A DNA stretch of 64,000 bases from Corallococcus sp. AB038B (GTDB lineage Bacteria; Myxococcota; Myxococcia; Myxococcales; Myxococcaceae), in NCBI RefSeq assembly GCF_003668955.1, contig NZ_RAWO01000002.1, forward strand, positions 215,605-279,604. Reading direction: 5' to 3'. Under the pieces are notes generated by a model. That model had not been told where the DNA came from, did no database searches, and worked only from the letters and a program-made list of their open reading frames with translations. Positions within the stretch are counted from its first letter, which is position 1, and every line of letters starts with the position of its first letter. Both the position numbers and the translations under genes were made by a program. Positions 3,675-50,081 of the stretch are shown here, one piece after another.

Positions 3675-5234
3675 CTACTCCGCCTCGCGGGCGAGCTGGA
3701 TGAGCGCGTCGGCCAGCGCGGCCATGTGTTCGGGCCGCGAGGCCGGATTGATGAAGACGGCCCGCAGGTACAGGTGGCCACTGGCGTGCCGGTAGCAGCT
3801 CACCGCGAACTTCCGGCTCTGCATCAGCCGTGACAGCAGCGCGTCGTTGCGTGCGTTCTCCCTTGCGAGCTCCTCGGGTGTCTCGCTGGCGGCCTTCGGG
3901 CGGAGGCGGAAGGCGAGCATGTTCATGGTCGGCGTGTCGGGGAAGAGCTCGAAGCAACCGCTCTTCTTCAGGCGCCGCGTGAAGTCCCGGGCGAGCGCGA
4001 AGAGGTGGTCCACGAGCCGGCCGTAGCCATCACGGCCGAAGTGGCGCAACAGCAGCCAGGCGCCCAGCGAGTTGAGTGCGCGCGAGCCGTCCAGCGTCAC
4101 CTCGCCCAGGTCGGACACCTCGCTCGTGACGAAGTAGTCCAGGCTCACCTTGCCCAGCAGCGTGAGCAGCCGCGCGTCGCGCACCAGCAGGCCGCCCAGT
4201 TGCGCGTTGAGGCCCAGCACCTTGTGGGGATCCAGCGTGACGGTGTCCGCGCCCTGGAGACCGTCGAGCAGGCCCCGGTGGCGCTGGGAGAAGAGCAGCA
4301 GGCTGCCGTGGGCGGCGTCCACGTGGACGAGCGCGCCGTGCTGATGAGCCAGCCGCATGCCCTCGCGCAATGGGTCGACGGCGCCCACTCCCGAGCTCCC
4401 CGCGGTCAGCACCACCACGGCGGGGAGCTGGCCCTGGCGCCGCGCCTCCACCAGCGCGGCCTCCAGGGCGATGGGACACAACCGGTCCTGGCCGTCGGTG
4501 GGAACGCGGTGCAGTCCCGCGTCTCCCAGCCCCAGCTGGCGGACGGCGGCGAAGATGCTGGGGTGCGAGGCCTCGGACGCGAAGACGCGCATCCCTCGGT
4601 GGCCCGTGCGGGACAGCGCCTCCACGAGTCCCAGCGCGTTGACGTCTGCCCCGGCGCGGCGCAGCGCTTCGTTGCGCAGGATGAGCAGCGCCTGGAAGTT
4701 GGATTGCGTCCCGCCGGACGTGAAGCAGCCTCCGGCCTGGGGGACGTCCGGAAACGCGAGGGACGTGAGCCAGCCGAGGACCTGTCGCTCGACGAACGTG
4801 CCCGAGCGCGCGGACGAGAAGGTGATGGGGTCCTGCGCCAGGGCGCGGATGAGCAGACCGCTGAAGACGGAGTAGTCCGTGGGCGGGACGTCCAGCTGCG
4901 CGAACCACGTGGGCGAGCGCTTGTCACGTCCGTGGGGCATCACGTGTTCGGCGACGTCCGCGAGGATGGCCTCGATGGGTTGCCCCTGCTCCGGCAGCGG
5001 CGCTTCGAAGGCCCTGGCGATGAGGCGGGCGGGGATAGGCGGGGGGACGGGGCTTCCGGCTGGGGCCCGCAGTCGCTGAAGCGCGAGGGCGACAAAGCCC
5101 TCCATGCGTGCGCGGACTTCGTCCTCGGGCAGGGCCTCGAAGGCGGCACGCAGGGCCGGGGGCAGCTCCGGGTAGGAGGGCTCGGTGACGTCGTCGTGGA
5201 TCATCGCGGCGGGGGTCACTCGTGTCGCACTCAA
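3675..5234 (-). CDS. PLP-dependent group II amino-acid decarboxylase (DABA/glutamate/aromatic decarboxylase family)
   Basis: 'TLDPHKVLG' PLP-lysine motif, 'TSGGTQSN' and overall fold II decarboxylase similarity. The track start TTG at 5234 overlaps the NRPS-PKS stop (TTGA); in-frame alternatives are GTG 5219 and ATG 5204. Last gene of the operon. Confidence 0.85.
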   Translation of the reverse strand: MSATRVTPAAMIHDDVTEPSYPELPPALRAAFEALPEDEVRARMEGFVALALQRLRAPAGSPVPPPIPARLIARAFEAPLPEQGQPIEAILADVAEHVMPHGRDKRSPTWFAQLDVPPTDYSVFSGLLIRALAQDPITFSSARSGTFVERQVLGWLTSLAFPDVPQAGGCFTSGGTQSNFQALLILRNEALRRAGADVNALGLVEALSRTGHRGMRVFASEASHPSIFAAVRQLGLGDAGLHRVPTDGQDRLCPIALEAALVEARRQGQLPAVVVLTAGSSGVGAVDPLREGMRLAHQHGALVHVDAAHGSLLLFSQRHRGLLDGLQGADTVTLDPHKVLGLNAQLGGLLVRDARLLTLLGKVSLDYFVTSEVSDLGEVTLDGSRALNSLGAWLLLRHFGRDGYGRLVDHLFALARDFTRRLKKSGCFELFPDTPTMNMLAFRLRPKAASETPEELARENARNDALLSRLMQSRKFAVSCYRHASGHLYLRAVFINPASRPEHMAALADALIQLAREAE

Positions 5235-17200: not shown

Positions 17201-20200
17201 GAGGTGTTGCGTCTCGAAGACGACCGCCCGCGCGTCTGGCGTGCTGCGGACCTGCGCCTCGAACAGCGTGTGCAGGCTCGCGTCGCGCGGGAAGTCCGCG
17301 TCGCTGGTGTTCCACTGCACCAGCAACTCGTGGCGCTCGGCGTCCGTGAGCAGGGGCAGCTCGGACAGCCGCAGATGGGGGCTTCGCAGCGCCCCCTCCA
17401 TCAGCACGTGCAGATGGGTGACCAGGCGCCGTGCCGTCTCCGGGCGGAACAGGTCGCTGGCGTACTCCAGCGTGCCCGTCAGGCCTCGCGGCGTGTCGGT
17501 GAGCACCAGCGTCAAGTCGAAGCGGCCCGTGCCGCCCTCGATGGGAATGGGCTCGAAGCGCAGCCCCGGCGCCTCCAGCGTGCCCATGGGCATGTTCTGG
17601 AACGTGAAGTTCACCTGGAAGAGCGGCGAGCGCGAGGGATCCCGCTCCGGCCGCAACGCCTCGACGAGCTTCTCGAAGGGCAGGTCCTGGTGGGCGTGCG
17701 CCTCCAGGGTCGTGTCGCGCACGCGGGCAAGCAGCTCGCGGAACGTGGGGTCCGCGTGCAGGCGAGTGCGGTACACCAGCGTGTTCACGAAGAAGCCGAT
17801 GAGCGCTTCCTGCTCCGCGAAGCGGCGGCCGGCCATCGCGCTGCCGACGCTCACGTCGTCCTGTCCTGCGTAGCGGCTGAGCAGGGCCTGGAATCCGGCC
17901 AGCAGGGCCATGAACGGGGTCACGCCTTCGGCCTGGCACAACGCCGCCAGGGACTCGGAGAGCGCGCGCGGCAGGGCGACGGGCACTGCGTCGCCACGGA
18001 AGGACGCCACCGGCGGACGCGGGAAGTCGGTGGGCAGCGTCAGGAACGCGGGGGTGCCTTCCAACTGCTGACGCCACCAGCGGATCCGCGACTCCAGGGC
18101 CTCCCCCCGAAGCCACGCGCGCTGCCACGCGGCGTGGTCGGCGTACTGCACCGGCAGCGGGGCCAGCAGGGAGGGCTGCCCGGACGCGAAGGCCTGGTAG
18201 AGGGCCACCATCTCCCGGACCAGCACGCCCAGCGACCAGCCGTCGGAGACGATGTGGTGCATCGTCACCACCAGCACGTGCCGCGCCTCCGCGAGCCGGA
18301 TCCGCACCGCGCGCAGCAGCGGCCCCGCGGCGAGGTCGAACGGACGCAGTTGCTCTTCCGCCGCGAGCCGGTGTGCCTCCGCTTCGGGCGCGTCGTGGGA
18401 CGACACGTCCATCACCGCCAGCCGGAAGTCCGCCGGCGGGTGGATGCGCTGCAGGGGCGCTCCGCCGTCCGCGTGGAAGGTGGTGCGCAGTGCTTCGTGC
18501 CGGCGGACGAGCTCCGTGAAGGCCTGCTCTAGAGCCGCCGTGTCGACGCGGCCCTCCATCCGGAGGGCGGACGGCATGTTGTAGGCGCTGCCTCCCGGGT
18601 GGAGCTGATCGAGGAACCAGAGGCTCTGCTGGGAGAAGGACAGCGGCAGGGGCTGTCCATCGCGAGGCACCGGCGTCAGCGGCGGGAGGATGTTCGCGGG
18701 AGCGCCAGCAGCGGTCGCGGCGTCCACGCGCTCCGCGAGCTTCGCGGGCGTGGGCGCTTCGAAGAAGGCGCGCAGGGGCAGCTCCACGGCGAAGGCGGAC
18801 CTCACGCGCGCGAGCACCTGGGTGGCCAGCAGCGAATGTCCGCCCAGCTCGAAGAAGTCATCGTCCACGCCGAGCGCGTCGATGCCCAGCATCTCCTGCC
18901 ACAGCTCCACCACGCGGCGCTCGCTGTCGCCACGGGGCGCCACGTACGGAGTCGCCAGGGGAGGGCGGGGATGCCGTCCTGTGTCCTGGGAACCGCTAGC
19001 CGGATCCGGCGCCGTCCCGGAGTTCCCACCGGCATCCGGCTCCTCCGCGCGCGGCGGGCCCTGGGAGATCCACCAGCGTCCTCCTTGCCCCGAGGCGGCG
19101 AGCAGACCCAGCCACACCGGGATGACCTCCTCCCGCCACGCATCCAGGTCGACCACGTACCAGCGTGGGCCCGGGCCCCGGTTCTGTTGCGCCGCGAAGG
19201 TGTCCATCGAGGCATGCGCGGCGGCCAGCACGCCACGGCCCACGCCGCCCACCACGGCCGTCAGCGAAGAACACACCGTTACGAAGTCCGGAGCACGCCC
19301 CTGGAGCGCTCCGGCCAGCGCGCCCAGCACGCCCACTCGGGAGCGGAAGACAGGCGCCCACGCCTCATCCGTGGCGTCCGCCAGGGATTGCCTGACCGCG
19401 CCCGCCGTGCCCTGCGGCAAGAAGAAGACGCCGTGGATCGCGCCGAAGCGGGCCTCGGCTGCGAGCAGCCCTTGGAGGAGCGGTTCGGGATCACCCGCGC
19501 CCATCGGAGCGAGGAGCACGCCCTGGGCCCCCATGCGCTCGAGATCCCCGAGGCGCTCCAGGTGGGACGCCTGAGGCACGGTGTCGGTCAACAGCACCAG
19601 CCTCGCCCGCGCGGTGGTGGAGAGCGCTTCGGCCAGAGCGAGGCCTCCGGCCTCCAGGTCTCCCATGATCAGGTACACGCCGCTCTGGCGCAGGGGGGAG
19701 GCCGCCGTGCGCGACGCGACGACCGGCTCGAAAGACTCCGTGAAGCGGTGCGGTCCGCGCAGCGCGACCACGGCTGGTGCGCCCGCGCCCAACTCCGCTA
19801 CCAGCTGCTCCGCCCAGCGTGGACCTTCCTCCGGCCGTGGCGGGCTCACGTCGATGGCGCGGCAGCGCAGCCCCGGGTACTCCTGGGACAGCACCCGGCA
19901 CACGCCGGACGCGGTGGCCTGCCAGGCGCGCAGGGGCTCCTCGCCCGTCACATCCTGGGCGCCACACGTGATCACGGCCAGCGTCACGGGCCGCGCGGCT
20001 GCGGCCGGCCCCAACCGCCGCGCGAGCTCCAGCAGTCCGTGAAGCACGCGGTCCACCGCGCCCGAGCCCTCCTCCGGGGACAGAGGCCACAGGAACGCGA
20101 CGTGGTCCGGTCCTCCACCGGCAGCCAGCCGTTCCTCGAGCGGCGCCCATGTCGCGTCCAATCCCAGCGCGAGGACGTCCGCGCCCCGCGCCTCCATCAG

Positions 20201-23047
20201 CCGCGCGATGCTTCCACCAAGCGCGTTCGCATCCTCCATCACCAGCCAGCGCTGATCATCGAAGCGGGGGACGGGAGCGCCCGCGATGCGCTGCCACGTG
20301 GGCACCGCGCACTCGAGCGCGGGGGGGACGTCCTCGCGGGGGACCTCGGACACGGCGAAGGCCGGAAGCCGGGCACCTGGAACAGACGCGACCGCGAGCA
20401 GGTCGAAGCGCTCCCGCTGGAAGGGGTAGGGCGGCAGCGGAACGCGGCGGCGGGGCTCCTTGCCGTACAGCTTCGCCAGGTCGATGGATGCACCGGCCAG
20501 CCAGAGCCGCGCGGCGGTCTCCGTCAGGTGCAGGTGGGCGTCCTGTCCGTCGCGTGGGCGTGGCAGCGACGTGAGGGCGGTGGGGGGATTGCCCGGGGGC
20601 GCGCACTGCCGGACGAACGTTCCCAGGGCCTGGCCCGGACCGACTTCCAGATAGAGCCGCTCCGTGCTCCCGAGCAGCGTGGTCGCGGCCTGCGCGAAGC
20701 GGACGGGTTCGCGCAGGTGGCGCGCCCAGGTTCGTGGATCCGTGGCCTGCGCGGCGGTGATCCACGTCCCGGTCAGGCTGGAGACGTACGGCCGCTTCGG
20801 CGGCGACAGACGGACGCGCGAAAGCTCCTGGAGGAAGCCCTCCACCATCGGCGCCACGGCCTCCGAGTGGAACGCGTGCAGGGCGCGGACTCGCCGGGTG
20901 CTCACGTCCCTGGCGGCCAGCGTCGCCTCCAGCGCCTCCAATGCCTGGATGGGCCCAGCCACCACGACCAGCGCGGGTGCGTTCACCGCCGCGACGGAAA
21001 CCCCTGGTGGCAGCAGCGGCGCGAGTGCGTCCTCTGGCAGGGACACCGACAGCATGCCGCCGGGAGGCAGCGCATCCATGAGGCGCCCGCGCGCGGCCAC
21101 CAGCGCCAGCGCGTCCGGGAGCGAGAACACGCCCGCGAGGCACGCGGCCACGTACTCGCCCGTGCTGTGGCCGACCATGGCCTCCGGCTCCACGCCGAAC
21201 GAACGCCACAGCTGCGCGAGCGCGTACTCCACCGCGAACATCGCGGGCTGCGCGAAGGTCATCCGCTCCAGCAGCGCCTCCGCCTCATTCGGTGCCTGAT
21301 CCGGAAACAGCACGGAGCGCAGGTCCTGGCCCAGGTGCGGGGTCAGCGCGTCGCGGCACGCGTCCAGATGCTTGCGGAAGACGGGCTCCGCTTCGTACAG
21401 CGCGCGGCCCATGTCCACGTGGTGGCTGCCGTGGCCTGGGAAGAGGAACACCACGGGGCGGCGAGCGTTCACGCTCGAGCCCCCCAGGTGGCGCCGTGGA
21501 TCCGCCAGCGCGGCCCGCGCATCCTCCAGGTCCCGGCAGAGCAGCGCGCGCCGGTGCTCATGCGTGCGGCGGCCCCGCTGGAGCGTGGACGCGACGTCCG
21601 CCAGCTCCAGTCCCGGCGTGCGCTCCAGGTGCGCGGCGAGCCGGGACGTGGCCTCCTCCAGCGCCCGGGGCGTGCGCGCGGACAGCGGAAGCACGTGCCA
21701 CGCGCGCCGGGTTCCGGCGGCCTTCGCGCGCGGCGGCTCCTCCAGCACCACGTGGACGTTGGTGCCCCCCAGGCCGAACGAGCTGACCCCGGCCCGGCGC
21801 TTCACCGCCCCGTCCCACGGCCTGGGCTCGGCGGTGACGAAGAAGGGGCCGCCGTCGAAGTCGATGGAGGGGTTGGGCTGCTGGAAGTGGGGCGTGGGAG
21901 GGATGACCGCGTGCTTCAGGGCCAGCACCGTCTTGAGCAGCCCCGCCACGCCCGCGGCGGAGTCCAGGTGGCCGATGTTCGCCTTCACGGTGCCCAGCAC
22001 GCAGCGCCGCGTGCCCGAGCGCGCGCCACCGAAGGCCTGGTTGAGCGCGGCGACCTCCACCGGGTCGCCCAGGGCCGTCGCCGTGCCGTGCCCCTCTACG
22101 TACTGCACGTCCTCCGGCTCCACGCCCGCGACGCCCAGCGCCTCCGCGATGGCGGCCGCCTGGCCCTCCACGCTGGGCGCGGTGAAGCCCGCCTTGGCGG
22201 AGCCGTCGTTGTTGACGGCCGACCCCAGGATGACCGCGTGGACGGTGTCCCGGTCCCGCACCGCCTCCGACAGGCGCTTGAGCACCACCACGCCCACGCC
22301 CGAGCCGAAGATGGTGCCCTGCGAACGAGCGTCGTACGCGCGGCACAGCCCGTCCGGGGAGATGATCATCCCTGGCTGGTACGCGTACCCGGCCGCCTGC
22401 GGGAACGCCACGGAGACGCCGCCCGCGAGCGCCATCTCGCACTCGCCCGACAGGAGGCTCTGACAGGCCAGGTGCACCGCCACCAGCGCGCTGGAACAGC
22501 CCGTCTGCACGGTGGCGCTCGGCCCGCGCAGGCCCAGGCGGTGCGAGGTGCGTGTGGCGACGAAGTCCTTGTCGTTGGCGAGCGACAGGTTGTACAGGCC
22601 CACCGTCTGCAACAGCTCTGGACGCCGCAGGAGCGCCTGGAACAGGTACGAGCTGGTGCTGGTGCTCGCGAAGGCGGCGATGGCCTCGGGGAAGCGCTCC
22701 GGGTCGTAGCCGGCGTCCTCCAGGGCCTCCAGCGCCGTCTCCATGAAGACGCGCTGCTGCGGATCCAGCACCTCCGCCTCGCGCGGGCTGTAGCCGAAGT
22801 ACCCCGCGTCGAAGTGCGTGGGCCCGTCCAGTGGATACGCGGCGCGCACCCAGTCCGGCCGCTCGCGCTGGGCACGGGGCACACCGGCCTGCTCCAGGTC
22901 CGCCGCGGTCAGCTCGCGCCGGGAGTGCACGCCGCGCCGGAGGTTGTCCCAGAAGGCGTCGAGCGTGGGAGCGCCCGGAAAGCGTCCCGACATGCCGACG
23001 ATGGCGATGCGCTCCACCGTGTCCGCCGTCTCCTCAGACATCCGCAT
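5231..23047 (-). CDS. Hybrid PKS-NRPS megasynthetase (5938 aa): KS-AT-KR*-ACP, then four C-A-T modules, then TE
   Basis: KS has 'TGCSSALVA' Cys184, 'EGHGTAT' and 'NIGH'. AT has 'GHSTGEY' and the malonyl-type 'HAFH'. KR-like domain is degenerate (see findings). ACP 'LGGHSLLATQ'. Four C domains carry 'HHIVSDGWS', four A domains 'YTSGSTGxPKG...NxYGPTE...GELxIGG', four PCPs 'GGHSLLA'. C-terminal TE 'GGWSLGTVIA'. ATG at 23047 overlaps the upstream NRPS gene by 14 nt. Confidence 0.95.
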   Translation of the reverse strand: MRMSEETADTVERIAIVGMSGRFPGAPTLDAFWDNLRRGVHSRRELTAADLEQAGVPRAQRERPDWVRAAYPLDGPTHFDAGYFGYSPREAEVLDPQQRVFMETALEALEDAGYDPERFPEAIAAFASTSTSSYLFQALLRRPELLQTVGLYNLSLANDKDFVATRTSHRLGLRGPSATVQTGCSSALVAVHLACQSLLSGECEMALAGGVSVAFPQAAGYAYQPGMIISPDGLCRAYDARSQGTIFGSGVGVVVLKRLSEAVRDRDTVHAVILGSAVNNDGSAKAGFTAPSVEGQAAAIAEALGVAGVEPEDVQYVEGHGTATALGDPVEVAALNQAFGGARSGTRRCVLGTVKANIGHLDSAAGVAGLLKTVLALKHAVIPPTPHFQQPNPSIDFDGGPFFVTAEPRPWDGAVKRRAGVSSFGLGGTNVHVVLEEPPRAKAAGTRRAWHVLPLSARTPRALEEATSRLAAHLERTPGLELADVASTLQRGRRTHEHRRALLCRDLEDARAALADPRRHLGGSSVNARRPVVFLFPGHGSHHVDMGRALYEAEPVFRKHLDACRDALTPHLGQDLRSVLFPDQAPNEAEALLERMTFAQPAMFAVEYALAQLWRSFGVEPEAMVGHSTGEYVAACLAGVFSLPDALALVAARGRLMDALPPGGMLSVSLPEDALAPLLPPGVSVAAVNAPALVVVAGPIQALEALEATLAARDVSTRRVRALHAFHSEAVAPMVEGFLQELSRVRLSPPKRPYVSSLTGTWITAAQATDPRTWARHLREPVRFAQAATTLLGSTERLYLEVGPGQALGTFVRQCAPPGNPPTALTSLPRPRDGQDAHLHLTETAARLWLAGASIDLAKLYGKEPRRRVPLPPYPFQRERFDLLAVASVPGARLPAFAVSEVPREDVPPALECAVPTWQRIAGAPVPRFDDQRWLVMEDANALGGSIARLMEARGADVLALGLDATWAPLEERLAAGGGPDHVAFLWPLSPEEGSGAVDRVLHGLLELARRLGPAAAARPVTLAVITCGAQDVTGEEPLRAWQATASGVCRVLSQEYPGLRCRAIDVSPPRPEEGPRWAEQLVAELGAGAPAVVALRGPHRFTESFEPVVASRTAASPLRQSGVYLIMGDLEAGGLALAEALSTTARARLVLLTDTVPQASHLERLGDLERMGAQGVLLAPMGAGDPEPLLQGLLAAEARFGAIHGVFFLPQGTAGAVRQSLADATDEAWAPVFRSRVGVLGALAGALQGRAPDFVTVCSSLTAVVGGVGRGVLAAAHASMDTFAAQQNRGPGPRWYVVDLDAWREEVIPVWLGLLAASGQGGRWWISQGPPRAEEPDAGGNSGTAPDPASGSQDTGRHPRPPLATPYVAPRGDSERRVVELWQEMLGIDALGVDDDFFELGGHSLLATQVLARVRSAFAVELPLRAFFEAPTPAKLAERVDAATAAGAPANILPPLTPVPRDGQPLPLSFSQQSLWFLDQLHPGGSAYNMPSALRMEGRVDTAALEQAFTELVRRHEALRTTFHADGGAPLQRIHPPADFRLAVMDVSSHDAPEAEAHRLAAEEQLRPFDLAAGPLLRAVRIRLAEARHVLVVTMHHIVSDGWSLGVLVREMVALYQAFASGQPSLLAPLPVQYADHAAWQRAWLRGEALESRIRWWRQQLEGTPAFLTLPTDFPRPPVASFRGDAVPVALPRALSESLAALCQAEGVTPFMALLAGFQALLSRYAGQDDVSVGSAMAGRRFAEQEALIGFFVNTLVYRTRLHADPTFRELLARVRDTTLEAHAHQDLPFEKLVEALRPERDPSRSPLFQVNFTFQNMPMGTLEAPGLRFEPIPIEGGTGRFDLTLVLTDTPRGLTGTLEYASDLFRPETARRLVTHLHVLMEGALRSPHLRLSELPLLTDAERHELLVQWNTSDADFPRDASLHTLFEAQVRSTPDARAVVFETQHLTYRQLDARANQLAHHLRALGVGPEVIVGLCVERSVEGVVGMLAILKAGGAFLCLDPAHPTARLALMLEDSGLQVLLTQDALLDVLPLSSSCVPCCFDADAAAISRRPTTPPAVEVHAGNLAYVIYTSGSTGRPKGTLLAHRGLCNSVLAAIRAHELSSESRVLQFASPTFDAAILETFAPLLAGATLVLAPRERLLPDAPLRALLTEQEITAVTLTPSVLAQLTSENLASLRTVISAGEALSPEIARCWSEGRTLLNAYGPTEATVCASITPGPVHADAPGIGKPWPNTRLYVLDAHLRPVPVGVPGELFIGGVGLARGYLGRPDLTAGRFLPDPFGTEPGARMYRTGDRVRWRQKGDLEYLGRTDFQVKLRGFRIELGEVEAALQAHAAVLQAVALVREDAPGLPRLVAYVVANGDGPLDVAALRVFLQQRLPEYMVPATLVVLDALPLTSSGKVDRRALPSPELRASGAPGHVPPGTPTEERLAALWKPLLQVEQVGSEDHFFELGGHSLLATQLVSRIRADFGVELALQALFEAPTLAALARRLDAARPEDASRAPPLLPVPRTGALPLSFAQQRLWLIEQIEPGGTAYNIPTVLRIRGRLDRGALGRAFSGLVERHEALRTVFATQDGEPVQIIQPPTEFALPEVDLSDASDSERVRQCAEAETQRPFNLAEGPLLRALLLRVGAEEHVLVVTMHHIVSDGWSMALLVREVASLYAAFSQSRPSPLPPLSLQYADFAAWQRLWLQGDVLSRHLDFWRQQLSGAPALLELPTDRPRPAVQSSRGAWVPFHLPQPLTSSLLDFCQQQGATPFMALLALWQLLLSRYSGQLDISVGAPIAGRTRSETEGLIGFFVNTLVLRSHVEPRSSFRQLLAQVRATTLSAFEHQHLPFEKLVEELQPQRSLRHSPLFQVMFTLRNTPDAAIQVEGGASALELSPVESDVVAAKFDLNLSLAETPEGLAGEILYRTDLFDAATITRMGEHLRTLTETALAAPDAPVGDLSLLSAGERAQVMEGFNATEDAFVAPCPLHTLIEEQAARHPERPAVACAGEVLTYGALDTRANQLAWRLRSLGVRPETRVGLCLERSVDMVVALLGVWKAGGAYVPLEPSQPAQRLRALVEEIAAPVVVTASRHAEAFTSLAAHVVRMDTDAQVLAAQPREAPVHGATARSLAYVLFTSGSTGRPKGVAVEHAQLFQYVRAATERLRLEECASFALLSTFAADLGNTVLFPALCTGGLLHVLPQELASSPAEVAAYFQRHAVDCMKIVPSHLAALLTAAEPRHILPRKKLVLGGESSSPALLEQLRALAPDCELFNHYGPTETTVGVIAGPVEVRPQAPVPLGQALAYTRLYVLDERLRPVPVGVPGELFIGGAQVTRGYLGRPELTAERYLPDVHSPVPGARMYRSGDRVRWLPDGRVEFIGRADFQVKVRGFRVEPGEVTAALSEHPAVREAWVVAREDMPGDTRLVAYVVSAAEPVSAGELRAFLQERLPAYMVPAAFVYLEAMPLTSNGKLDRKALPGPEETTREATFIAPRTPTEERLAALWAGLLRTERISVEEDFFALGGHSLLATQVVSRVRQTFEVELPVRALFEAPTVAALAARIDSAARTQAPALRPVPRDGDPPLSFAQQRLWFIDQLQPLSAAYHMPTFVRLVGPLDEASLRRALDELVRRHEALRTTFVQHEGQPLQRIAATAQLPLVVVEPGALPLEPQLHEEASRPFQLDAGPLARAKLWRLGSTEHVLALTLHHIVSDGWSMGVLVREVAALYEAFSQGRPSPLPPLPVQYADYAVWQRQWLQGDVLQAQLDYWKQQLSGAAPLELPTDKPRPPVQSSNGAQVPVVLPAEASSRIKALGLQEGVTPFMLLLSAFQVLLSRYSGQQDVTVGSPIAGRQRGELEDLIGFFVNTLVLRARVAPDLSFRALLAQVKETALGAYAHQDVPFERLVEELHPTRDMSRAPLFQVLFSLQGVPGTEPLQSQALSLHPLEADTATSKFELQLILSDTPEGFRGTLAFNTDLFDASTASRMATHFGRLVDALLTRPDAPLASVSMLREDERRQVLVEWNTTASDYPRDASIHSLFHEQSLRTPDAVAVEAAGATLTYRQLDARANQLARFLLTLGLGPEPRIGVCLHRNVDLVVGLLGILKAGGCYVPLDPSYPPQRLAFLLADSDVAAVLTQQSLTPVLPKSSRPVVCLDSDGERIARQPVEAPHAPVRADQLAYVTYTSGSTGTPKGVAIPHRGVVRLLIGSRFVKLGPAEIVLQLAPLAFDASTLEIWGALLHGGRLVLFPQAVPSLEELGQALLRHRVSVLWLTAALFDQMQQEQPQALAAVAQLLAGGDVLPVPRVRERLAQSRGLVNGYGPTESTTFTTCHVMAPGDAVGSSVPIGRPIANTQVYVLDAAMQPVPVGVPGELYIGGDGLARGYLGRPALTAERFVPHPFAASPGERLYRSGDRVCWSEDGTLRFLGRMDFQVKLRGFRIEPGEVEAVLREHADVTEATVLVREDVPGDKRLVAYVVPPELDTARLRDHLRQRLPEYLVPSAFVAMKALPLSAHGKVDRKALPAPEAPRGSATREPPRNALETQLVSLWEKVLGREGIGIHDHFFELGGHSLLATQLVSRIRSALEVELPVRALFEAPTVAALAARIDSAARTQAPALRPVPRDGDLPLSFAQQRLWFIDQLQPLSAAYHMPTFVRLVGPLDEASLRSALDELVRRHEALRTTFVQHEGQPLQRISATAHLPLVVVEPGALPLEPQLHEEASRPFQLDSGPLARAKLWRLGSTEHVLALTLHHIVSDGWSMGVLVREVAALYEAFSQGRPSPLPPLPVQYADYAVWQRQWLQGDVLQAQLEYWKQQLSGAAPLELPTDKPRPLVQSSNGAQVPVVLPAETSRQLKALSLQEGVTPFMLLLGSFQVLLSRYSGQEDVTVGSPIAGRQRGELEGLIGFFVNTLALRIQVDGQKSFVHLLRQVKETALGAYAHQDVPFERLVEELHPTRDMSRAPLFQVLFALQNAPAAPIREQALSLHPMDVDGSTSKFELQLILSDTPEGFQGALGFNTDLFEVSTASRMAAHFGLLVDALLARLDAPLASVSMLGEDERRQVLVEWNNTEASYPQDSTLPEVFAQVVARFPEKLALECGVARLTYRQLDAQANRLAHHLRGLGVTTDSRVAIALDRSLELVVGLLAILKAGGAYVPLDPSYPRERLAAMVEDARPRVLLTSRALLAKLPESLSTVVLEDVALEGLPTHAPAPSALPLSLAYIDFTSGSSGRPKGVGTPHRAVLRTLFSTGLTHFGPDASFLLLAPISFDASTFEIWGALLHGSRLVIAPPSPPSLEELGALIQRASITTLWLTSGLFSQMVDGHIEGLRPLKHLLTGGDVVSLPHARRVLDSLQLPVTNGYGPTESTVFATAFHLRDTTFPGASLPIGKPLANTRVYILDAHGIPLPVGLPGELFIGGDGLARGYLEQPALTAERFLPDAFSSTPGARLYRTGDKARWRPDGSLEFLGRLDSQVKLRGFRIELPEVEAALLIHPDVHQAAVLLREDVPGDKRLVAYVTAPDTLSAASLRAFLLRHLPEYMVPSAFVHLDALPLTAQAKLDRRALPPPDARATSDYVAPRTPTEALLATLWAELLHKEQVGIHDDFFASGGHSLLAVRMAASIRARTGKSLPLAALFQAPTVEQLAAVLDGGPAPTSSLVVIQRGGTRPPFFCVHPAGGNVLAFADLARRLGPEQPVYGLQAQGLDGRLPPLDSIDAMARHYVAALRSAQPHGPYRLGGWSLGTVIAAEMARHLHQAGEAVELLALIEPSPAHAAMEDDDSELALHFALDLARLAGLPPRLPAEVIEGGPEALLHHLYAEGQRTGLFSAESGLEELRILLRVFTANVRARARHTLTPLPVPLTLIVGADSGNPDARGWDALTPRLDVIPVPGDHYTLLHPPQVEGLARVLAPLLEHAAPARAHLPAAPVQPDEPPSPPSRVGGETP
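5234..6103 (-). other. Type I thioesterase (TE) release domain (aa ~5649-5938)
   Basis: 'GGWSLGTVIAAE' GxSxG nucleophile elbow, C-terminal 290 aa, downstream 'GDHYTLL' His region. Confidence 0.7.
6128..9202 (-). other. NRPS module 4 (C-A-T; aa ~4616-5640), A-domain code D-A-F-W-L-G-G-V (Val/Ile-like)
   Basis: 'FDASTFEIW', 'TTLWLTSGLF', 'LLTGGD', 'NGYGPTESTV'. Confidence 0.55.
7948..9307 (-). repeat. Intragenic direct repeat copy A (PCP3 C-terminus + C4 domain)
   Basis: aa 4581-4841 are nearly identical to aa 3537-3797, and similarity continues to aa ~5034. The same duplication shows in the out-of-frame shadow ORFs 8497-9084 versus 11590-12216 and 8210-8905 versus 11342-12030. Confidence 0.8.
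9263..12346 (-). other. NRPS module 3 (C-A-T; aa ~3568-4595), A-domain code D-A-L-W-L-G-G-T (Val-like)
   Basis: 'FDASTLEIW', 'VLWLTAALF', 'LLAGGD', 'NGYGPTESTT'. Confidence 0.55.
11080..12439 (-). repeat. Intragenic direct repeat copy B (PCP2 C-terminus + C3 domain)
   Basis: Partner of copy A. Offset is exactly 3132 bp (1044 codons), one module length. Confidence 0.8.
12398..15505 (-). other. NRPS module 2 (C-A-T; aa ~2515-3550), A-domain code D-L-T-K-V-G-H-V (Asp-like)
   Basis: A4 motif region 'STFAADLGNTV' has a 2-aa insertion, but the code matches the canonical Asp code DLTKVGHI. 'NHYGPTETTV'. Confidence 0.55.
15563..18652 (-). other. NRPS module 1 (C-A-T; aa ~1466-2495), A-domain code D-A-L-T-I-A-A-V (aromatic-like)
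   Basis: Stachelhaus positions read by aligning to GrsA motifs A4 'FDAAILETF' through A5 'NAYGPTEATV'. Confidence 0.55.
18728..23047 (-). other. PKS module KS-AT-KR*-ACP (approximate boundaries; aa 1-1440)
   Basis: Residue counting of the translated ORF: KS aa ~13-436, AT ~531-830, KR-like ~1100-1300, ACP Ser ~1405. Boundaries +/- 30 bp. Confidence 0.7.
19178..19270 (-). other. Degenerate KR active-site segment ('GVGRGVLAAAHASMDTFA' in place of 'GQxNYAAANAFLDALA')
   Basis: Alignment of aa 1260-1290 to the canonical KR motif: catalytic Tyr becomes Leu, Asn becomes His. The NADPH-binding Gly motif is also atypical ('MGDLEAGGLALA'). Confidence 0.5.
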
Positions 23048-26000
23048 CCCCGTCCAGCTCCAGGTCCGCGTCGTCGTCCGAGTCCCGCGCGGGTGCGGCC
23101 ACCGTCTTGCGAGCGAAGGCCTGTCGCCGGCGAGACCGGTCGCGTCCGGACTTCGCCCCGCTGTCGGATCCGCCGCCCTGCGCCAGGCGTTCCGCCAGGG
23201 CCCGGACCGTGGAGTGCTGGAAGAGCACCGTCAGCGGCAGCTCCACGCCCAGCTCCGCGCGCAGCCGCTGGTGCAGCCGCAGCGCGAGCAGCGAGTTGCC
23301 GCCCAGCTCGAAGAACGGATCATCCAGGCCCACGCGCTCCACCTGGAGCACGTCGCTCCAGAGCCGGGCCAGTTGCTCCTCCCGCTCCGTGCGCGGAGCC
23401 TCGAACGTTCGCCCCGATTCCAGCTGACCCGCAGTGGGTGGCGGAAGCGCGCGCACGTCCAGCTTGCCGTTGGCGGTGAGGGGGAACGCGGGCACGGAGA
23501 CGAAGGCGGAGGGCACCATGTGCGGCGGGAGCCGCTCCAGGAGGAACGCGTGCAGCGCCGTCGCGGTGGGTGGTTGTCCCGCCGTGGCCGGGACGAGCCA
23601 CGCGACGAGCCGCTGGCCCCCCGCGGGCGTGTCCTGGATGAGCACGGCGGCCTCTTCCACCGAGGCGTGCTGGCGGAGCGCCGCCTCGATTTCCCCCAGC
23701 TCGATGCGGAAGCCCCGCAGCTTCACCTGTCCATCGAGCCGGCCCAGGAACTCCAGCTCCCCGTCCTGCCGCCAGCGCACGCGGTCTCCCGTGCGGTAGA
23801 GGCGCGCGCCCGGCTCGGACGCGTACGGATCCGGCACGAAGCGCTCGGCCGTGGTGCCCGGCAGGTTCAGGTAACCCCGCGCGAGGCCCACGCCGCCCAC
23901 GCACAGCTCTCCGGGGACTCCCACTGGCACCGGCGACAGCCGCGCGTCCAGCACGTACACGCGCACATTGGGGATGGGGCGGCCCAGCGGCGGCGCGCGG
24001 CCCTCCGGCCGGACCTCCGTCGCGGTGGCTGTCACCGTCACCTCCGTGGGCCCGTAACCGTTGATGAAGCGGCGGCCCTCGCCCCAGCGCGACACCAGCT
24101 CCGCGGTGCATGCCTCGCCACCGGAGAAGACGGTGCGCAGCGAGGGCAGGCCCGTGGCGTCGGTGGCCGCGAGCGCAGTGGGCGTGGCGTTGAGCACGGT
24201 GATGGCCTGTTGCTTCAGCAGCTGGTGCAGCGGCTCGCCGGGCATCAGTCGCTCCACCGGCGCCAGGCACAAGGTGCCGCCGGCCGTGAGGGTGGCGAAG
24301 ATCTCCTCCACGGACACATCGAAGCCGGGATTGGAGAACTGGAGCACGCGCGAGGCCGGGCCCAGCTCGCTGACGCGCGCCTCGTGCACCACCAGGTTGC
24401 AGGCCGCGCGGTGCGTGGCCACGACGCCCTTGGGCTGGCCCGTGGAGCCAGAGGTGTAGATGACGTACGCGGGGCCGTCCGGCAGGGGCGCTCCAGGGGG
24501 CGCCCGCGAGGTGTCCGCATCCGGCACCCCATCCTCGAAGCACACCGTGCGCGCGCCCGGAGCGGAGGGCAGTCCCGCGAGCAGGGTCCGGTGGGCCAGC
24601 AGCACCTTCACGGCGGAGTCCTGGAGCATGAAGGCCAGCCGCGCCGCGGGATAGGTGGGATCCAACGGGACATAGGCACCGCCCGCCTTGAGCGTCGCGA
24701 GCATGCCCACCACCATGTCGAACGAGCGCGCGGCGCACAGCCCCACGTACGCCTCCGGCCCCACGCCCAACCCGCGCAGGTGCCAGGCCCACTGGTTGGC
24801 GCGCGCATCCAGCTGCCGGTAGCTCAGCGATTGGCCCTCGAAGGTGAGCGCGGGCGCGTAGGGCGTGCGGTGCGCCTGGGCTTCGAAGAGGGTGTGCAGA
24901 CCGTCCTCTTGGGGGTAGGGCGCGGAAGTGCCGCTCCACGCCCCCAGCAACTGTTCGCGCTCGTTTGGGGTGAGCAGGGGCAGCCGAGACAGGCGCTCGT
25001 GCGGCGTGGCCAGTGCTCCCTCCAGAAGGCGGATCAGGTGCGCCAACATCCGGCGGACGGTGCCGGGTTCGAACAGGTCCGTGGGGTACTCCGCGGTGAG
25101 GCGCAGTCCCTGGGGCAGGTCCTCGGCGATGAGCGTCAGGTCGAACTGGGCGGAAGCCGTGTCCACCGGACGCGCCTCCAGTTGAAGGCCCGGCACCTCC
25201 AGGGGCGGCAGCGGTGCGTTCTGGAGGACGAACATCGCCTGGAAGAGGGGCGCGCGGCTCGGGTCGCGACCGGGCTTGAGGGCGTCCACCAGCCGCTCGA
25301 AGGGAAGCTCCTCGCGAGCGAAGGCATCGAGCGCCACCGGCTGGAGACGCGCCAGCAGCTCCCGGAAGGACGGGGCACCTGAAAGGTCCGTCCGCAGGAC
25401 GACCGTGTTGACGAACAGGCCGATGAGCCCCTCCAGCTCCGCGCGGGGGCGGTTGGCCACGGGCGTTCCGACGGCGAGGTCCTCCTGACCGGTGTAGCGG
25501 TGGAGCAGGGTCTGGAACACCGCCAGCAGGGTGACGAACAGCGTGCGGCCTTCCTTGCGGGCGAACGCCTTGAGGTCCGCGGTGAGCGCGGTGGGCAGTT
25601 CCACCGCTTCGCGCGCGCCGCGAGTGCCCAGCACCGCCGGACGCGGCTTGTCCGTGGGCAGCTCCAGCAACGCGTGGGGGTCGATGCGCTCGCGCCACCA
25701 GGCGAGCCGTGCATCCGCCTCTTCGCCCTGCTGGGCCCGACGCTGCCAGCTGGCGTAGTCGCCGTACTGCAGCGGAAGCGGCGGCAGCTCGGGAGCCTTG
25801 CCCTCCTGGAAGGCCGCGTAGAGCGCCGTCAACTCGCGGACGACGACGCCCATGGACCAGGCGTCTGACACCCCGTGGTGCATGGCGAAGAGGAGCAGGT
25901 GCTCGCGCGCGGACAGCTGGAAGAGGCGCGCCCGGAACAGCGGACCCCGTTCCAGGTCGAAGGGCTCACGGGCCACCTCCGCGACGCGCTGGACGGCCCG

Positions 26001-26378
26001 GGCCTCCCGTTCTGATTGAGGAAGCGCCTGCAGGTCCTCCAGGGGGAGTGCCGCCTCCAGCGTGGGTGCGACGACCTGCACGGGCCGCCCGTCCGCCAGA
26101 GAGAAGGTGGTGCGCAGCGCCTCATGGCGGATCACCAGCGCCTGGAGCGCGCGCTGGAGCACCGGCGCCTGGAGCTCGCCCAAAAGCCGCACGGCCACCG
26201 GCATGTTCAGCGCCGAGCCCCCGGGGCTCCACTGTTCGAGGAACCACATCCGTTCCTGCGCGAAGGAGAGCGGAGCGCGCCTGGGGGCCGCGACCTTCTC
26301 CTGGAGGAGCTTCGCCAGCAGGGCCCGCTTGTCGTCCGAGGGTGACGTCATGGTTTCCATCATCGCCCTGGAGGGCAT
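23034..26378 (-). CDS. NRPS loading module: N-terminal (starter-type) C domain, A domain, PCP, acidic C-terminal docking tail
   Basis: C 'MHHGVSDAWS'; A 'YTSGSTGQPKG', 'NGYGPTE', 'GELCVGG'; PCP 'LGGNSLLAL'. C-terminus 'DSDDDADLELDGDADV'. Stop TGA 23034-23036 lies 14 nt inside the next gene. Alternative in-frame ATGs at codons 6, 7 and 10. A-domain code D-V-E-N-F-G-G-V. Confidence 0.9.
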   Translation of the reverse strand: MPSRAMMETMTSPSDDKRALLAKLLQEKVAAPRRAPLSFAQERMWFLEQWSPGGSALNMPVAVRLLGELQAPVLQRALQALVIRHEALRTTFSLADGRPVQVVAPTLEAALPLEDLQALPQSEREARAVQRVAEVAREPFDLERGPLFRARLFQLSAREHLLLFAMHHGVSDAWSMGVVVRELTALYAAFQEGKAPELPPLPLQYGDYASWQRRAQQGEEADARLAWWRERIDPHALLELPTDKPRPAVLGTRGAREAVELPTALTADLKAFARKEGRTLFVTLLAVFQTLLHRYTGQEDLAVGTPVANRPRAELEGLIGLFVNTVVLRTDLSGAPSFRELLARLQPVALDAFAREELPFERLVDALKPGRDPSRAPLFQAMFVLQNAPLPPLEVPGLQLEARPVDTASAQFDLTLIAEDLPQGLRLTAEYPTDLFEPGTVRRMLAHLIRLLEGALATPHERLSRLPLLTPNEREQLLGAWSGTSAPYPQEDGLHTLFEAQAHRTPYAPALTFEGQSLSYRQLDARANQWAWHLRGLGVGPEAYVGLCAARSFDMVVGMLATLKAGGAYVPLDPTYPAARLAFMLQDSAVKVLLAHRTLLAGLPSAPGARTVCFEDGVPDADTSRAPPGAPLPDGPAYVIYTSGSTGQPKGVVATHRAACNLVVHEARVSELGPASRVLQFSNPGFDVSVEEIFATLTAGGTLCLAPVERLMPGEPLHQLLKQQAITVLNATPTALAATDATGLPSLRTVFSGGEACTAELVSRWGEGRRFINGYGPTEVTVTATATEVRPEGRAPPLGRPIPNVRVYVLDARLSPVPVGVPGELCVGGVGLARGYLNLPGTTAERFVPDPYASEPGARLYRTGDRVRWRQDGELEFLGRLDGQVKLRGFRIELGEIEAALRQHASVEEAAVLIQDTPAGGQRLVAWLVPATAGQPPTATALHAFLLERLPPHMVPSAFVSVPAFPLTANGKLDVRALPPPTAGQLESGRTFEAPRTEREEQLARLWSDVLQVERVGLDDPFFELGGNSLLALRLHQRLRAELGVELPLTVLFQHSTVRALAERLAQGGGSDSGAKSGRDRSRRRQAFARKTVAAPARDSDDDADLELDGDADV

Positions 26379-47560: not shown

Positions 47561-47572
47561 ATTGCACCAACA

Positions 47573-47588
47573 GCGTTCCTAGCTTGCG
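47573..47588 (+). promoter_or_regulatory. Conserved 16-nt motif GCGTTCCTAGCTTGCG, copy 2 (upstream of 47616 gene)
   Basis: Exact repeat of copy 1. Embedded in TTGAAT-N17-TAGCTT, 27 nt before the ATG. Confidence 0.35.
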
Positions 47589-47615
47589 TCTCACGAGGGT
47601 GGGGGAGGGACGCTG

Positions 47616-48089: not shown

Positions 48090-48156
48090 GGGGGCGGAAA
48101 GAGGGCCGGGCGCGGGGAATGCGCTCGGTCGGTGACAGTCCTGGCGTCTTGGGCGT

Positions 48157-48939
48157 ATGAATCCGCCCATGGCGAAGGAGAGCTACAACGATCTCATCTT
48201 CCAGCTCGGCGACCTGGCCCGGGACGTCCTCCCGGGCAAGCCGAACTGCCCCCGCTCCATGGAACGCGTCTACCGCGCCGAAGAGGTGCTGGAGGCGCGC
48301 CGGGACGAGCTGGCGGCGCTGGAAGCGGAGATGAACGACGAGGACGTGGCCTATCAGGACTTCCAGGCGCAGCACGAGGATGACTGCGGCGCCCAGAAGG
48401 AGATCACCGGCCGGTTCCAGAAGGCCGTGACGGCGGTGGAAGGCAAGGTGAAGGGGCTGCGCAAGACGCTGGCCACCCGCCGCGCCGACCTGCGCTACGC
48501 CATCGTGGGCCTGAAGAAGCTGGAGGCGAAGCTCGCGGACCTGGAGATGACCACCCAGGATCCGGTGAAGCTGGACGCCGCCAAGCAGAACCTCAAGAAG
48601 AACCGCATCGCCCAGATGCGCCTGGCGCGCGAGGTCGAGGACTGGGAGTCCCAGCTGGCGGCCTCCCTCACGCCCACCCCCGGCCAGCCCGGCGCGGCCG
48701 GCATCCTGGCGCACAAGCGCCTGATCGAGCTGGAGGACGCCGCGGAAGAGCAGAAGACGCAGCACGACGCCCGGATGGCGGAGCTCGACCAGTCCATCGC
48801 CACCAAGGAGGAGGAGATCAAGGGCGCGGAAGATTATCTGGATCAGGCCCTGTTCCTCCTCGGCGAAGAGGTGTATGCCCAGCGCATCGCGGACGGGCAG
48901 CTCAACCCCTTCTACAAGCGGTTGGACGTCGCGCAGTGA
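48157..48939 (+). CDS. Coiled-coil hypothetical protein (260 aa)
   Basis: Heptad-rich Glu/Lys/Leu sequence ('EAEMNDEDVAYQDFQAQHED...KKLEAKLADLEM'). GC3 bias. Confidence 0.6.
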   Translation: MNPPMAKESYNDLIFQLGDLARDVLPGKPNCPRSMERVYRAEEVLEARRDELAALEAEMNDEDVAYQDFQAQHEDDCGAQKEITGRFQKAVTAVEGKVKGLRKTLATRRADLRYAIVGLKKLEAKLADLEMTTQDPVKLDAAKQNLKKNRIAQMRLAREVEDWESQLAASLTPTPGQPGAAGILAHKRLIELEDAAEEQKTQHDARMAELDQSIATKEEEIKGAEDYLDQALFLLGEEVYAQRIADGQLNPFYKRLDVAQ

Positions 48940-48961
48940 GGGGTACGCCCACCCTTGGTGC

Positions 48962-48990
48962 TTGACGTTGAGGACGTGTTTGCTATCTTG
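48962..48990 (+). promoter_or_regulatory. Candidate promoter of rplC paralog (TTGACG - 16/17 nt - TATCTT)
   Basis: -35-like hexamer 48962-48967 and -10-like 48984-48989, ~95 nt upstream of the GTG start. Confidence 0.3.
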
Positions 48991-49082
48991 CGCCGCTTCC
49001 TGGCGGCCGCAGGTACGCGTGTAGGCCAGTTCATTGAATTCATTGGGCTTTCAGCGCCACGGGCGCTCGCTGTGAGGACGAC

Positions 49083-49751
49083 GTGAAGGGTCTGATTGGC
49101 AAGAAGATCGGCATGACCCAGGTGTTCAACGACGAGGGCAACCTCGTTCCGGTGACGGTCATCGACGTCAACACCTGTCTGGTGGTCGGCAAGCGCACCC
49201 CGGAGAAGGATGAGTACTCCGCGGTGACCGTGGGCTTCGGCGAAATCCGCGAGAAGCTCTTGAACAAGCCGGAGCTCGGCTTCTTCAAGAAGGCCAGCGC
49301 CACGCCGCGCCGTCATCTGCGCGAGTTCCGCGTCACGGCCGAAGAGGCCGCGGGTTTCAACGTGGGCGACGCCGTCAAGGCGGACATGTTCACCAAGGGC
49401 GAGCTGGTGGACGTCACCGGCGTGACCAAGGGTCGCGGCTTCTCCGGCGTCATGCGCCGCTGGAGCTTCAAGGGTTCGCAGACCAAGACCCACGGTACGC
49501 ACGAGTATCAGCGTCACCCGGGCGCCATCGGTCAGCGTAAGACGCCGGGCCGTACGTACCCGAACAAGAAGATGCCGGGTCACTACGGCGTCGATCGCGT
49601 CACCACGCAGAACCTGACCGTGGTGGACGTGGACGTGGAGAAGGGCCTCGTGCTCGTGAAGGGCGCGGTCGCCGGCCACAACGACGGCATCGTCATCGTG
49701 CGTCCCTCCATCAAGGTGGCCATGCGCGCGCAGCACAAGGCCGCGCGCTGA
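49083..49751 (+). CDS. rplC: 50S ribosomal protein L3 (stand-alone copy, outside an S10 operon)
   Basis: 'MKGLIGKKIGMTQVFNDEGNLVPVTVIDV...GVTKGRGFSGVMRRWSFKGSQTKTHGTHEYQRHPGAIGQRKTPGRTYPNKKMPGHYG...LVLVKGAVAG' is full-length L3. GTG start. No flanking ribosomal genes. Confidence 0.9.
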   Translation: MKGLIGKKIGMTQVFNDEGNLVPVTVIDVNTCLVVGKRTPEKDEYSAVTVGFGEIREKLLNKPELGFFKKASATPRRHLREFRVTAEEAAGFNVGDAVKADMFTKGELVDVTGVTKGRGFSGVMRRWSFKGSQTKTHGTHEYQRHPGAIGQRKTPGRTYPNKKMPGHYGVDRVTTQNLTVVDVDVEKGLVLVKGAVAGHNDGIVIVRPSIKVAMRAQHKAAR

Positions 49752-49768
49752 TTCGCAGCCACTGACGC

Positions 49769-49792
49769 CGGGGCGCTTCACCGCGCCCCGTT
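49769..49792 (+). terminator. GC hairpin CGGGGCGC-ttcacc-GCGCCCCG followed by TT, 18 nt after rplC stop
   Basis: Perfect 8-bp stem with a 6-nt loop. Weak U-tract. Confidence 0.45.
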
Positions 49793-50081
49793 CGACGCCC
49801 CGCTTCCGGCACCTTCGGGTTGCCGGGCGGGGCGTTCGTCGTTTCCGGGGGCGGTGTCCGCGCGTGCTCGCGGGGGCTGAGGCCTCGCATCCGTGCGGAA
49901 ACGTTGAGTGCTGGTCGCCCTGGGGGCAAAGGGCGAAAACTTTACCGACTGCCGCTGGGATCCGCTTGCGGTGAATGGGCGCCGTGCTCACATCGCTGTC
50001 CCACGCCGGAGCCTCGCCGTCCAAGCAGACGGGTTGCCATCCGGATCACCCAACGGCCCACCCCCGGGCCGGGCAGGAGAT

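Follow-up and report, generated by a model that had tools for sequence, protein, structure and literature searches.

The window analysed here, a 64,000-nucleotide stretch of contig NZ_RAWO01000002.1 from Corallococcus sp. AB038B, contains a gene for ribosomal protein L3 (rplC, product uL3) that stands immediately upstream of a gene cluster of the nfsA-H type. This gene is very probably the sole housekeeping uL3 gene of the genome, relocated out of the S10 operon, transcribed as a monocistronic unit and inherited vertically at a fixed locus, and its adjacency to nfs is best regarded, with similar confidence, as ancient synteny and not as co-regulation. A sequence-only reading of the same DNA had described a full-length, stand-alone L3 gene with a GTG start, lying between a coiled-coil gene and an Nfs-type cluster, and had offered two explanations: an additional L3 paralogue with a specialised role, or relocation of a single copy. 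The description was borne out, and the evidence from relatives supports the relocated single copy.

The product of the open reading frame (ORF) is a full member of the bacterial uL3 family. It matched TIGR03625 (bacterial L3, equivalog) with 271.2 bits against a cutoff of 142.9 over model positions 1-202 of 202, and PF00297 with 65.6 bits against a cutoff of 22. Residues 1-213 were colinear with residues 1-205 of Thermus thermophilus uL3 (E = 9.5e-64) without truncation, and the N-terminus and the internal extended loop were both covered in the alignment to uL3 chains of solved ribosomes. As the first ten residues (VKGLIGKKIG) align to the conserved uL3 N-terminus and a GAGGA Shine-Dalgarno (SD) motif lies 4 nt upstream, the GTG start was regarded as correct. 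The identical protein, named 50S ribosomal protein L3 (Corallococcus exiguus) by NCBI, is encoded on contigs of Corallococcus exiguus, where its gene has the same neighbours. Public annotation already includes this gene at this position, and L3 serves as a single-copy marker in myxobacterial phylogenies. Several database versions of L3 with 212-215 amino acids (aa), as well as the 214-aa RefSeq call for the Myxococcus xanthus orthologue MXAN_3370, which begins 10 codons too late relative to the conserved N-terminus, take the internal Met of GKKIGMTQ as their first residue and omit the ten conserved residues that align with solved uL3 (window 49083-49112); the GTG start has probably led to a wrong choice of start codon in these entries.

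The canonical S10 operon of E. coli (rpsJ-rplC-rplD-rplW-rplB...) encodes a protein of the same universal uL3 family, to whose solved bacterial members, such as that of T. thermophilus, the full-length product in the window is colinear, but rplC here is not a member of that operon, and in relatives S10 is directly followed by L4. No S10, L4, L23 or L2 gene was found in the 64-kb window. The S10 operon of relatives was approached through the RNA-seq supplement for M. xanthus and then through an S10-L4 DNA pattern in metagenomes. In M. xanthus DK1622, S10 is MXAN_3299 (RS15990, 3854626:3854934), L4 is MXAN_3300 (RS15995, 3854988:3855611), L23 is MXAN_3301 and L2 is MXAN_3302, while the only L3 gene is MXAN_3370 (RS16315, 3913660:3914304), located about 59 kb past S10-L4 and immediately before nfsA (MXAN_3371) (Munoz-Dorado et al. 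2019 supplementary tables, PMC6791715). Since S10 and L4 are separated by 53 nt and carry consecutive locus tags, there is no gene between them. Ribosomal-protein paralogues are given for M. xanthus only for S1, S4, S14, L28 and L33, and L3 is not listed (PMC6791715). A main-text literature search on MXAN_3299-3302 returned nothing useful, and the supplements of Mueller et al. 2010 contained no MXAN_3370 entry. The two complete Myxococcus genomes CP071091.1 and CP102770.1 showed the same 53-nt gap between S10 and L4, with no PF00297 gene in the gene calls there, in the order S12, S7, EF-G, EF-Tu, S10, L4, L23, L2, S19, L22, S3, L16, L29, S17, L14, L24, L5, S14, S8.

The order S10-L4-L23-L2 without L3 was also found in metagenome-assembled genome (MAG) and metagenome-assembly contigs of Myxococcaceae and Archangiaceae, and one S10-L4 contig came from assembly ERZ23329302, which also holds an nfs-linked L3 locus (L022). 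A scan of metagenome DNA for S10 followed by L4 within about 430 nt yielded 39 contigs (L089-L127), all 39 of which had the order S10-L4-L23-L2 and none an L3 gene between S10 and L4. L4 was at least 83% identical to Myxococcus L4 in nine of them; that of L089 was 96% identical to Archangium L4 and 88% identical to Myxococcus L4. The remaining 30 contigs were not from Myxococcaceae (L4 28-62% and S10 67-95% identical to Myxococcus; GC content 58-72%), which indicates that the loss of rplC from the S10 operon extends beyond the family. Thus, the S10 operon lacks rplC in every relative inspected (Myxococcus and Archangium-type genomes, MAGs) and apparently in further high-GC lineages; the L4 matches inspected for this purpose were from these sources, and none was from a Corallococcus genome. 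Conversely, a genome scan with the L3 of the window recovered one locus per species in 80 species, with L3 identities from 97% to 63%. S10, L4, L23 and L2 were absent within 6-10 kb of L3 in all 86 loci, and an NfsA/B/C-like cluster lay downstream in most. Corallococcus belongs to the same family as Myxococcus, and Archangium is an outgroup to both. Because the relatives of Myxococcus and Archangium type lack rplC in the S10 operon and the L3 locus has the same synteny, rplC of this Corallococcus genome was judged very probably to be single copy and relocated.

The M. xanthus orthologue MXAN_3370 (MXAN_RS16315), although from a different genus, encodes a protein about 89-90% identical to that of the window (locus L024 of M. 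xanthus strain AM003), is single copy and has the same neighbours, a coiled-coil gene upstream and nfsA downstream, with the same promoter, leader layout and putative terminator. Its RNA was compared with that of other genes as reads per kilobase per million mapped reads (RPKM) over 0-96 h of development (PMC6791715). MXAN_3370 gave 1043, 690, 2260, 2682, 1766, 1565 and 1456, and L4 gave 1455, 522, 2213, 2779, 1893, 1921 and 1803; both fall in developmental group 6, which also includes S10, L23 and most other ribosomal proteins, and L3 RNA drops at 6 h of starvation together with them (PMC6791715). The upstream coiled-coil gene MXAN_3368 (RPKM 146-270, group 2) and nfsA (RPKM 43-193 with a late rise, group 8) behave differently, nfsA RNA being 10-35 times below L3 RNA (PMC6791715). 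A separate nfsA promoter was inferred by Mueller et al. 2010 (PMC2875238) from the differing transcription patterns of Mxan_3370 and nfsA. The RPKM series and the separate nfsA promoter identify M. xanthus L3 as a separate, highly expressed unit, and it behaves as a bulk ribosomal protein, not as a sporulation gene.

The linkage between rplC and nfs/glt-type clusters is far older than Myxococcaceae. The L3 orthologues listed were all at least 82% identical to that of the window, the next clusters in a search of 50% representatives were at most 59% identical, and the nearest L3 outside the clade was about 50% identical. In a sister group of uncultured 'Myxococcales' MAGs (representative P0122, L3 59% identical), L3 lies about 100 nt upstream of a GltA/B/C/D/E-like cluster; P0122, the nearest outgroup, thus proved to share the relocation. 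L3 and the nfsA-like gene are 90-130 nt apart in several deep lineages; in most Myxococcaceae and Archangiaceae the distance is 260-400 nt and includes the terminator-like hairpin. A few lineages carry 3-5 kb of inserted DNA between the two genes or have no nfsA within 6 kb. In L088 (1-8762), which belongs to this sister group, L3 is preceded by rpoB, rpoC and a gene for an aldehyde dehydrogenase; L087 (8001-8775) likewise has the L3-nfsA/gltA-like order. Luciano et al. 2011, on the evolution of glt and nfs genes, mention no ribosomal gene, and a literature search found no paper on rplC relocation or its leader in the searchable library. The adjacency is very old and usable as a synteny marker for the cluster.

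Against this background, a second, specialised L3 paralogue for development, sporulation or stress, which would build alternative ribosomes and would have been co-opted beside the sporulation machine Nfs, is extremely unlikely, even though the adjacency to nfsA-H has been kept over long evolutionary distances and some other ribosomal proteins of M. xanthus are indeed duplicated, with paralogues that differ in expression (PMC6791715). L3 is absent from the duplicated ribosomal proteins of that species, exactly one L3 locus was present in each of 80 genomes, and, as no further rplC occurs in the S10 operons of the Myxococcus and Archangium-type relatives, the nfs-linked copy must serve vegetative ribosomes. 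The development-specific expression proposed in the sequence-only reading was not seen in M. xanthus, where L3 belongs to group 6 with the ribosomal proteins and is not induced with nfs (PMC6791715), and for M. xanthus the paralogue is already refuted. In GC-rich bacteria, raised use of GGT and CGT codons is typical of highly expressed genes. Within the window, rplC had the highest GGT/Gly (0.27) and CGT/Arg (0.31) values among 19 genes, which was read as high expression and also argues against a specialised role. L3 is a target-site determinant for some ribosome antibiotics, and a 5938-aa ORF adjoins a condensation-adenylation-PCP gene for a non-ribosomal peptide synthetase (NRPS) in the window, so that rplC could be imagined as a self-resistance copy of an antibiotic target tied to the large NRPS genes about 26 kb upstream. 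This has next to no probability: the L3 locus and its flanks are kept in 80 species irrespective of this NRPS cluster, L3 is the sole copy in the relatives checked, and conserved synteny together with single-copy status effectively rules it out. A functional coupling between rplC and the nfs/glt-like cluster, in which basal read-through into nfs from the rplC promoter or an extraribosomal role of L3 keeps the genes adjacent, draws on the persistence of the rplC-nfsA-like order from Corallococcus to MAGs with about 59% identical L3 and on the spacers of only about 90-130 nt in deep lineages. It is nevertheless very unlikely, given the 260-400-nt spacer with a conserved terminator-like hairpin in Myxococcaceae, the 10-35-fold difference in level and the different timing of L3 and nfsA RNA in M. 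xanthus, and the several lineages in which 3-5 kb intervene or nfsA is missing within 6 kb; co-regulation with nfs was rejected on the same three grounds.

The relocated gene appears to carry its own signals for expression (Table 1). The putative promoter matches 9 of 12 consensus positions and has the TG motif ahead of the -10 element. Every locus whose L3 is at least 82% identical retains GTGCTTGACG, a TTGAC or TTGAT -35 element recurs in deeper lineages, and the promoter is kept in essentially all orthologous loci, deep lineages included. The discriminator GCGCCGCTTCC is present once upstream of L3 in most loci, and transcription is predicted to start at about 48995-48996. Similar arrangements were found upstream of Myxococcus rpsL (GTGCTTGACA, 16 nt, TATACT, CGCGGCCC, TTTTCAG) and rpsJ (TTGCAT, 17 nt, TAATCA, CCGCGCCCC, TTCG), the design common to the three being a strong -35/-10 pair followed by a GC-rich discriminator and a start region rich in pyrimidines. 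The rrnB P1 promoter of E. coli (TATAAT-GCGCC...) is a stringently controlled promoter with a GC-rich discriminator, which the rplC promoter resembles in the GCGCCGC block right after the -10 element. By analogy with such stringent promoters, the shared discriminator design could provide co-regulation with ribosomal operons without operon membership. A link of the rplC promoter to ppGpp would follow from the same analogy; co-variation of expression is seen in M. xanthus. The motif TTGCGCCGCTTCC was tried as a general tag of ribosomal-protein promoters and dropped, as no promoter other than that of L3 carries it in the window or the loci; second matches in L058-L061 fall within a coding region.

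Table 1. Predicted and annotated features of the rplC locus (positions in the window)
Feature	Position	Strand	Sequence	Remarks
-35 hexamer	48962..48967	+	TTGACG	sole promoter-like match in 48000-50300
Extended -10 element	48981..48989	+	TGcTATCTT	TG before -10; 16-nt spacer; TGCTAYMTT kept across genera
GC-rich discriminator and start region	48990..49000	+	GCGCCGCTTCC	invariant in 37/37 distinct leaders; unique in window
Hairpin P1	49000..49029	+	outer stem CUGGC (49000-49004) / GCCAG (49025-49029)	predicted in most genera
A/U-rich block	49030..49052	+	TTCATTG-aa-TTCATTG	drawn single-stranded; consensus ...UCAUUGAWUUYAUUGRG-UUUU
Hairpin P2	49053..49067	+	AGCGCC-ACG-GGCGCU	15 nt before start codon; GCGC/GCGC core predicted by RNAalifold
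Shine-Dalgarno motif	49074-49078	+	GAGGA	4 nt before GTG; GTGAGGAYGAC-GTG invariant in 37/37 distinct leaders
rplC, uL3 coding sequence	49083..49751	+		GTG start, TGA stop, 222 aa
First GC-rich hairpin after stop	49770..49789	+	GGGGCGC-UUCACC-GCGCCCC	
Terminator-like hairpin	49795..49846	+	ACGCCCCGC...GCGGGGCGU, then UCGUCGUUUCC	stem-loop 49795-49835

At the other end of the gene, the stem formed by ACGCCCCGC and GCGGGGCGU, with its U-rich tail, is kept after L3 in Corallococcus, Myxococcus, Pyxidicoccus and related MAGs. The U-tract is interrupted in the window (UCGUCGUUUCC) and cleaner in relatives (GUUCGUUUUUU); a simple terminator scan did not list this second hairpin because of the interruption. 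The drop in RNA from L3 to nfsA in M. xanthus is consistent with termination at this place. The rplC gene of the window would thus form a monocistronic unit, as RNA levels show for the M. xanthus orthologue. In E. coli, control mediated by L4 acts on the S10-operon transcript. Standing outside that operon, with a promoter, leader and putative terminator of its own, rplC here cannot fall under such control, unlike canonical rplC.

The predicted 5' untranslated region (5'UTR) of rplC is about 87 nt long within an intergenic region of 143 nt, a little shorter than the approximately 95 nt of the sequence-only reading. That reading had also recognised the direct repeat TTCATTG-aa-TTCATTG and the hairpin AGCGCC-ACG-GGCGCT. 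Both are present, the repeat at 49030-49036 and 49039-49045 instead of 49032-49047, and the hairpin ending 15 nt, not 10 nt, before the start codon. Its view of the leader as structured holds in that two conserved hairpins with some compensatory changes were found, and fails in that the leader belongs to no described RNA family and has no exceptional stability. An alignment was made of 37 distinct leaders from genera in which L3 is at least 82% identical. All share the 5' GCGCCGCUUC, the next CU is nearly invariant, and GUGAGGAYGACGUG, from the SD motif to the start, is invariant in essentially all. Hairpin P1 has one covarying pair (C-G 10, U-A 10, A-U 6), and its pairing register varies between genera. 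The closing pair of P2 is C-G in 9, A-U in 6, G-U in 2 and U-A in 1, with a full compensatory change (CGUGC/GCACG) in L040. When pairs were counted on a user-specified structure, 86.5% of cells were paired, compared with 37-54% when the 3' partners were slid by 1-3 columns, and the covariation score was reached in 0 of 500 shuffles. In the A/U-rich block, ATTG of the second copy and the T-run after it show little or no variation. Conservation of the first copy is restricted to Corallococcus, Myxococcus and Pyxidicoccus, and the exact TTCATTG repeat is limited to Corallococcus, except for one Pyxidicoccus locus (L020). The M. xanthus leader differs in having TCATTGAACTTATTG in place of the exact repeat and a CGCGC-type P2 stem. 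Part of the block pairs internally in some single-sequence RNAfold structures, that of the window included. No Rfam 15 family matched in 48900-49082 even at E up to 10. P1 and P2 are regarded as real, conserved features, on evidence that is modest, because the sequences are from close relatives, the RNAalifold consensus is weak, the minimum free energy of the whole leader is no better than that of shuffles and no Rfam family matched.

Several natural variants bear on the leader. In lineages with 72-74% L3 identity, leaders are only about 28-30 nt long and have no hairpins. In L016 (MAG SECN01000124.1, about 5930-6000), the -10 element (TGCTATCT) runs straight into GCGCCACGGGCGCT, and P1 and the A/U-rich block (about 68 nt) are gone through a deletion between two GCGCC repeats; this locus is either a natural variant showing that P1 and the block are dispensable or an assembly artefact of the MAG. 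The short leaders and the L016 deletion suggest that the long leader is a lineage-specific elaboration not needed everywhere. In the Corallococcus loci L010 and L013, a 5-nt tandem duplication, CAGTT CAGTT, lies at the junction of P1 and the A/U-rich block (equivalent to window ~49025-49034), so that this junction tolerates small indels. Seven deep-branching loci (L055, L075, L078, L081, L083, L084 and L086) share another conserved leader, CCGCACCUCUGG ... GUGCGAGAGAAAG ... AUG, about 90 nt upstream of L3, in which CGCAC and GUGCG could form a stem and CACCUC is similar to the anti-Shine-Dalgarno sequence of 16S rRNA; this may be an independent SD-sequestering leader. TTG codons in the A/U-rich block of the window open frames of 10-13 codons (49034-49075 and 49043-49075) that end at the TGA inside GTGAGGA, and in relatives the TTG frame ends there or at a TGA that overlaps the GTG start codon. 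Translation of an upstream ORF from the invariant TTG is not supported: the peptide is unconserved beyond three residues, the frame shifts between close relatives, and the base changes are compensatory.

These features could also be assembled into an operator, with P1, the A/U-rich block, P2 and the 5' UCCU allowing excess free L3 to bind its own mRNA and block translation; such feedback would take the place of the control by L4 to which rplC is subject as a member of the S10 operon in other organisms. The leader is kept across genera with compensatory changes in both hairpins, P2 directly precedes the SD motif, in over half of the genera RNAfold predicts a helix between the 5' UCCU and AGGA of the SD motif, and a gene outside its operon needs a means to match ribosome stoichiometry. 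Like the ribosomal-protein leader RNAs of Rfam (L10, L20, S15, S10/L4), the rplC leader has conserved 5'UTR hairpins, one of them just before the SD motif, and some covariation. It differs from them in having no match in Rfam 15 and no detected rRNA mimicry and in being absent where leaders are short. Local alignment scores of three leaders with E. coli 23S rRNA were within the shuffle distribution, and thus no resemblance beyond chance was found, in a comparison that used E. coli and not myxobacterial rRNA and that structural-only mimicry would escape. The putative anti-SD helix has only 4 bp and is invariant, so that covariation cannot test it. The absence of an Rfam match, the hairpin-less leaders of about 28-30 nt in related lineages and the lack of P1 and the A/U-rich block in L016 also argue against an operator, and L3 is not known as an autoregulator in the model bacteria with mapped regulation of this kind. 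Autoregulation was therefore considered unlikely, and we give a correspondingly low probability to the scenario in which the Myxococcus/Corallococcus/Archangium lineage would have evolved a dedicated L3-responsive feedback leader after rplC left the S10 operon. Such a leader, if real, would add uL3 to the proteins with a ribosomal-protein leader RNA and has not been described before.

Some points weigh against the preferred interpretation of rplC as a relocated, sole and monocistronic housekeeping gene. Its single-copy status in this Corallococcus genome is extrapolated from Myxococcus, from Archangium-type relatives and from the synteny of the L3 locus, and the transcription start, the terminator and the function of the leader are predictions from the DNA. 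In M. xanthus, L3 RNA falls 1.5-fold at 6 h of starvation compared with 5-fold for S10 (PMC6791715), and this smaller drop indicates that regulation is not identical to that of the S10 operon. The folding energy of the whole leader is no better than that of shuffled sequence (z = +1.07), and the RNAalifold consensus is weak at -10.8 kcal/mol.

In the course of events proposed for the relocated gene, the slot of rplC between rpsJ and rplD would have been vacated by the time of the Myxococcaceae/Archangiaceae ancestor, probably earlier, and vertical inheritance would since have kept the gene at one locus, directly before the nfs/glt-type envelope-machine cluster. Through its strong sigma-70-type promoter and GC-rich discriminator, rplC would come under the growth-rate and stringent control of ribosomal operons. 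The 5'UTR hairpins and the A/U stretch most likely stabilise the mRNA and boost translation initiation: the 5'-proximal hairpin may protect the mRNA, the A/U stretch before the SD motif may enhance initiation, and P2 may keep the SD region out of alternative GC-rich pairings. The conserved GC-rich terminator-like hairpin would insulate nfsA from rplC transcription, which fits the RNA-seq levels. As a normal uL3 gene, rplC brings little new biology in itself; relocated, and with a ribosomal-type promoter and a lineage-specific 5'UTR, it constitutes a small natural test of stoichiometry outside the operon.

The neighbourhood of rplC agrees with that of its orthologues. Upstream lie the gene for the 260-aa coiled-coil protein (48157..48939; no Pfam match), a gene for a 157-aa protein and, further on, one for a HupE/UreJ-type protein. 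These three genes (window 46907-48939) are syntenic in every relative whose L3 is at least 82% identical (loci L007-L053), and the 157-aa protein is unusually conserved (76-100% identity) without a match to a Pfam or NCBIfam family. The genes downstream form the nfsA-H-type cluster, encoding two OMP_myx_plus barrels, a GltC-like TPR protein, large TPR proteins, an FHA/TonB-C protein and another barrel. No tRNA gene, tRNA-Sec included, was detected in the window, nor was any Rfam match at gathering score. A gene for SelA (L-seryl-tRNA(Sec) selenium transferase) at 26543-28036 on the forward strand implies the use of selenocysteine. On the reverse strand, at 5231-26378, the 5938-aa ORF (5231..23047) adjoins the NRPS gene (23034..26378; 1114 aa), whose product has condensation, adenylation and PCP domains; the two point to a large gene cluster for a non-ribosomal peptide, which has no relation to the conserved L3 locus.

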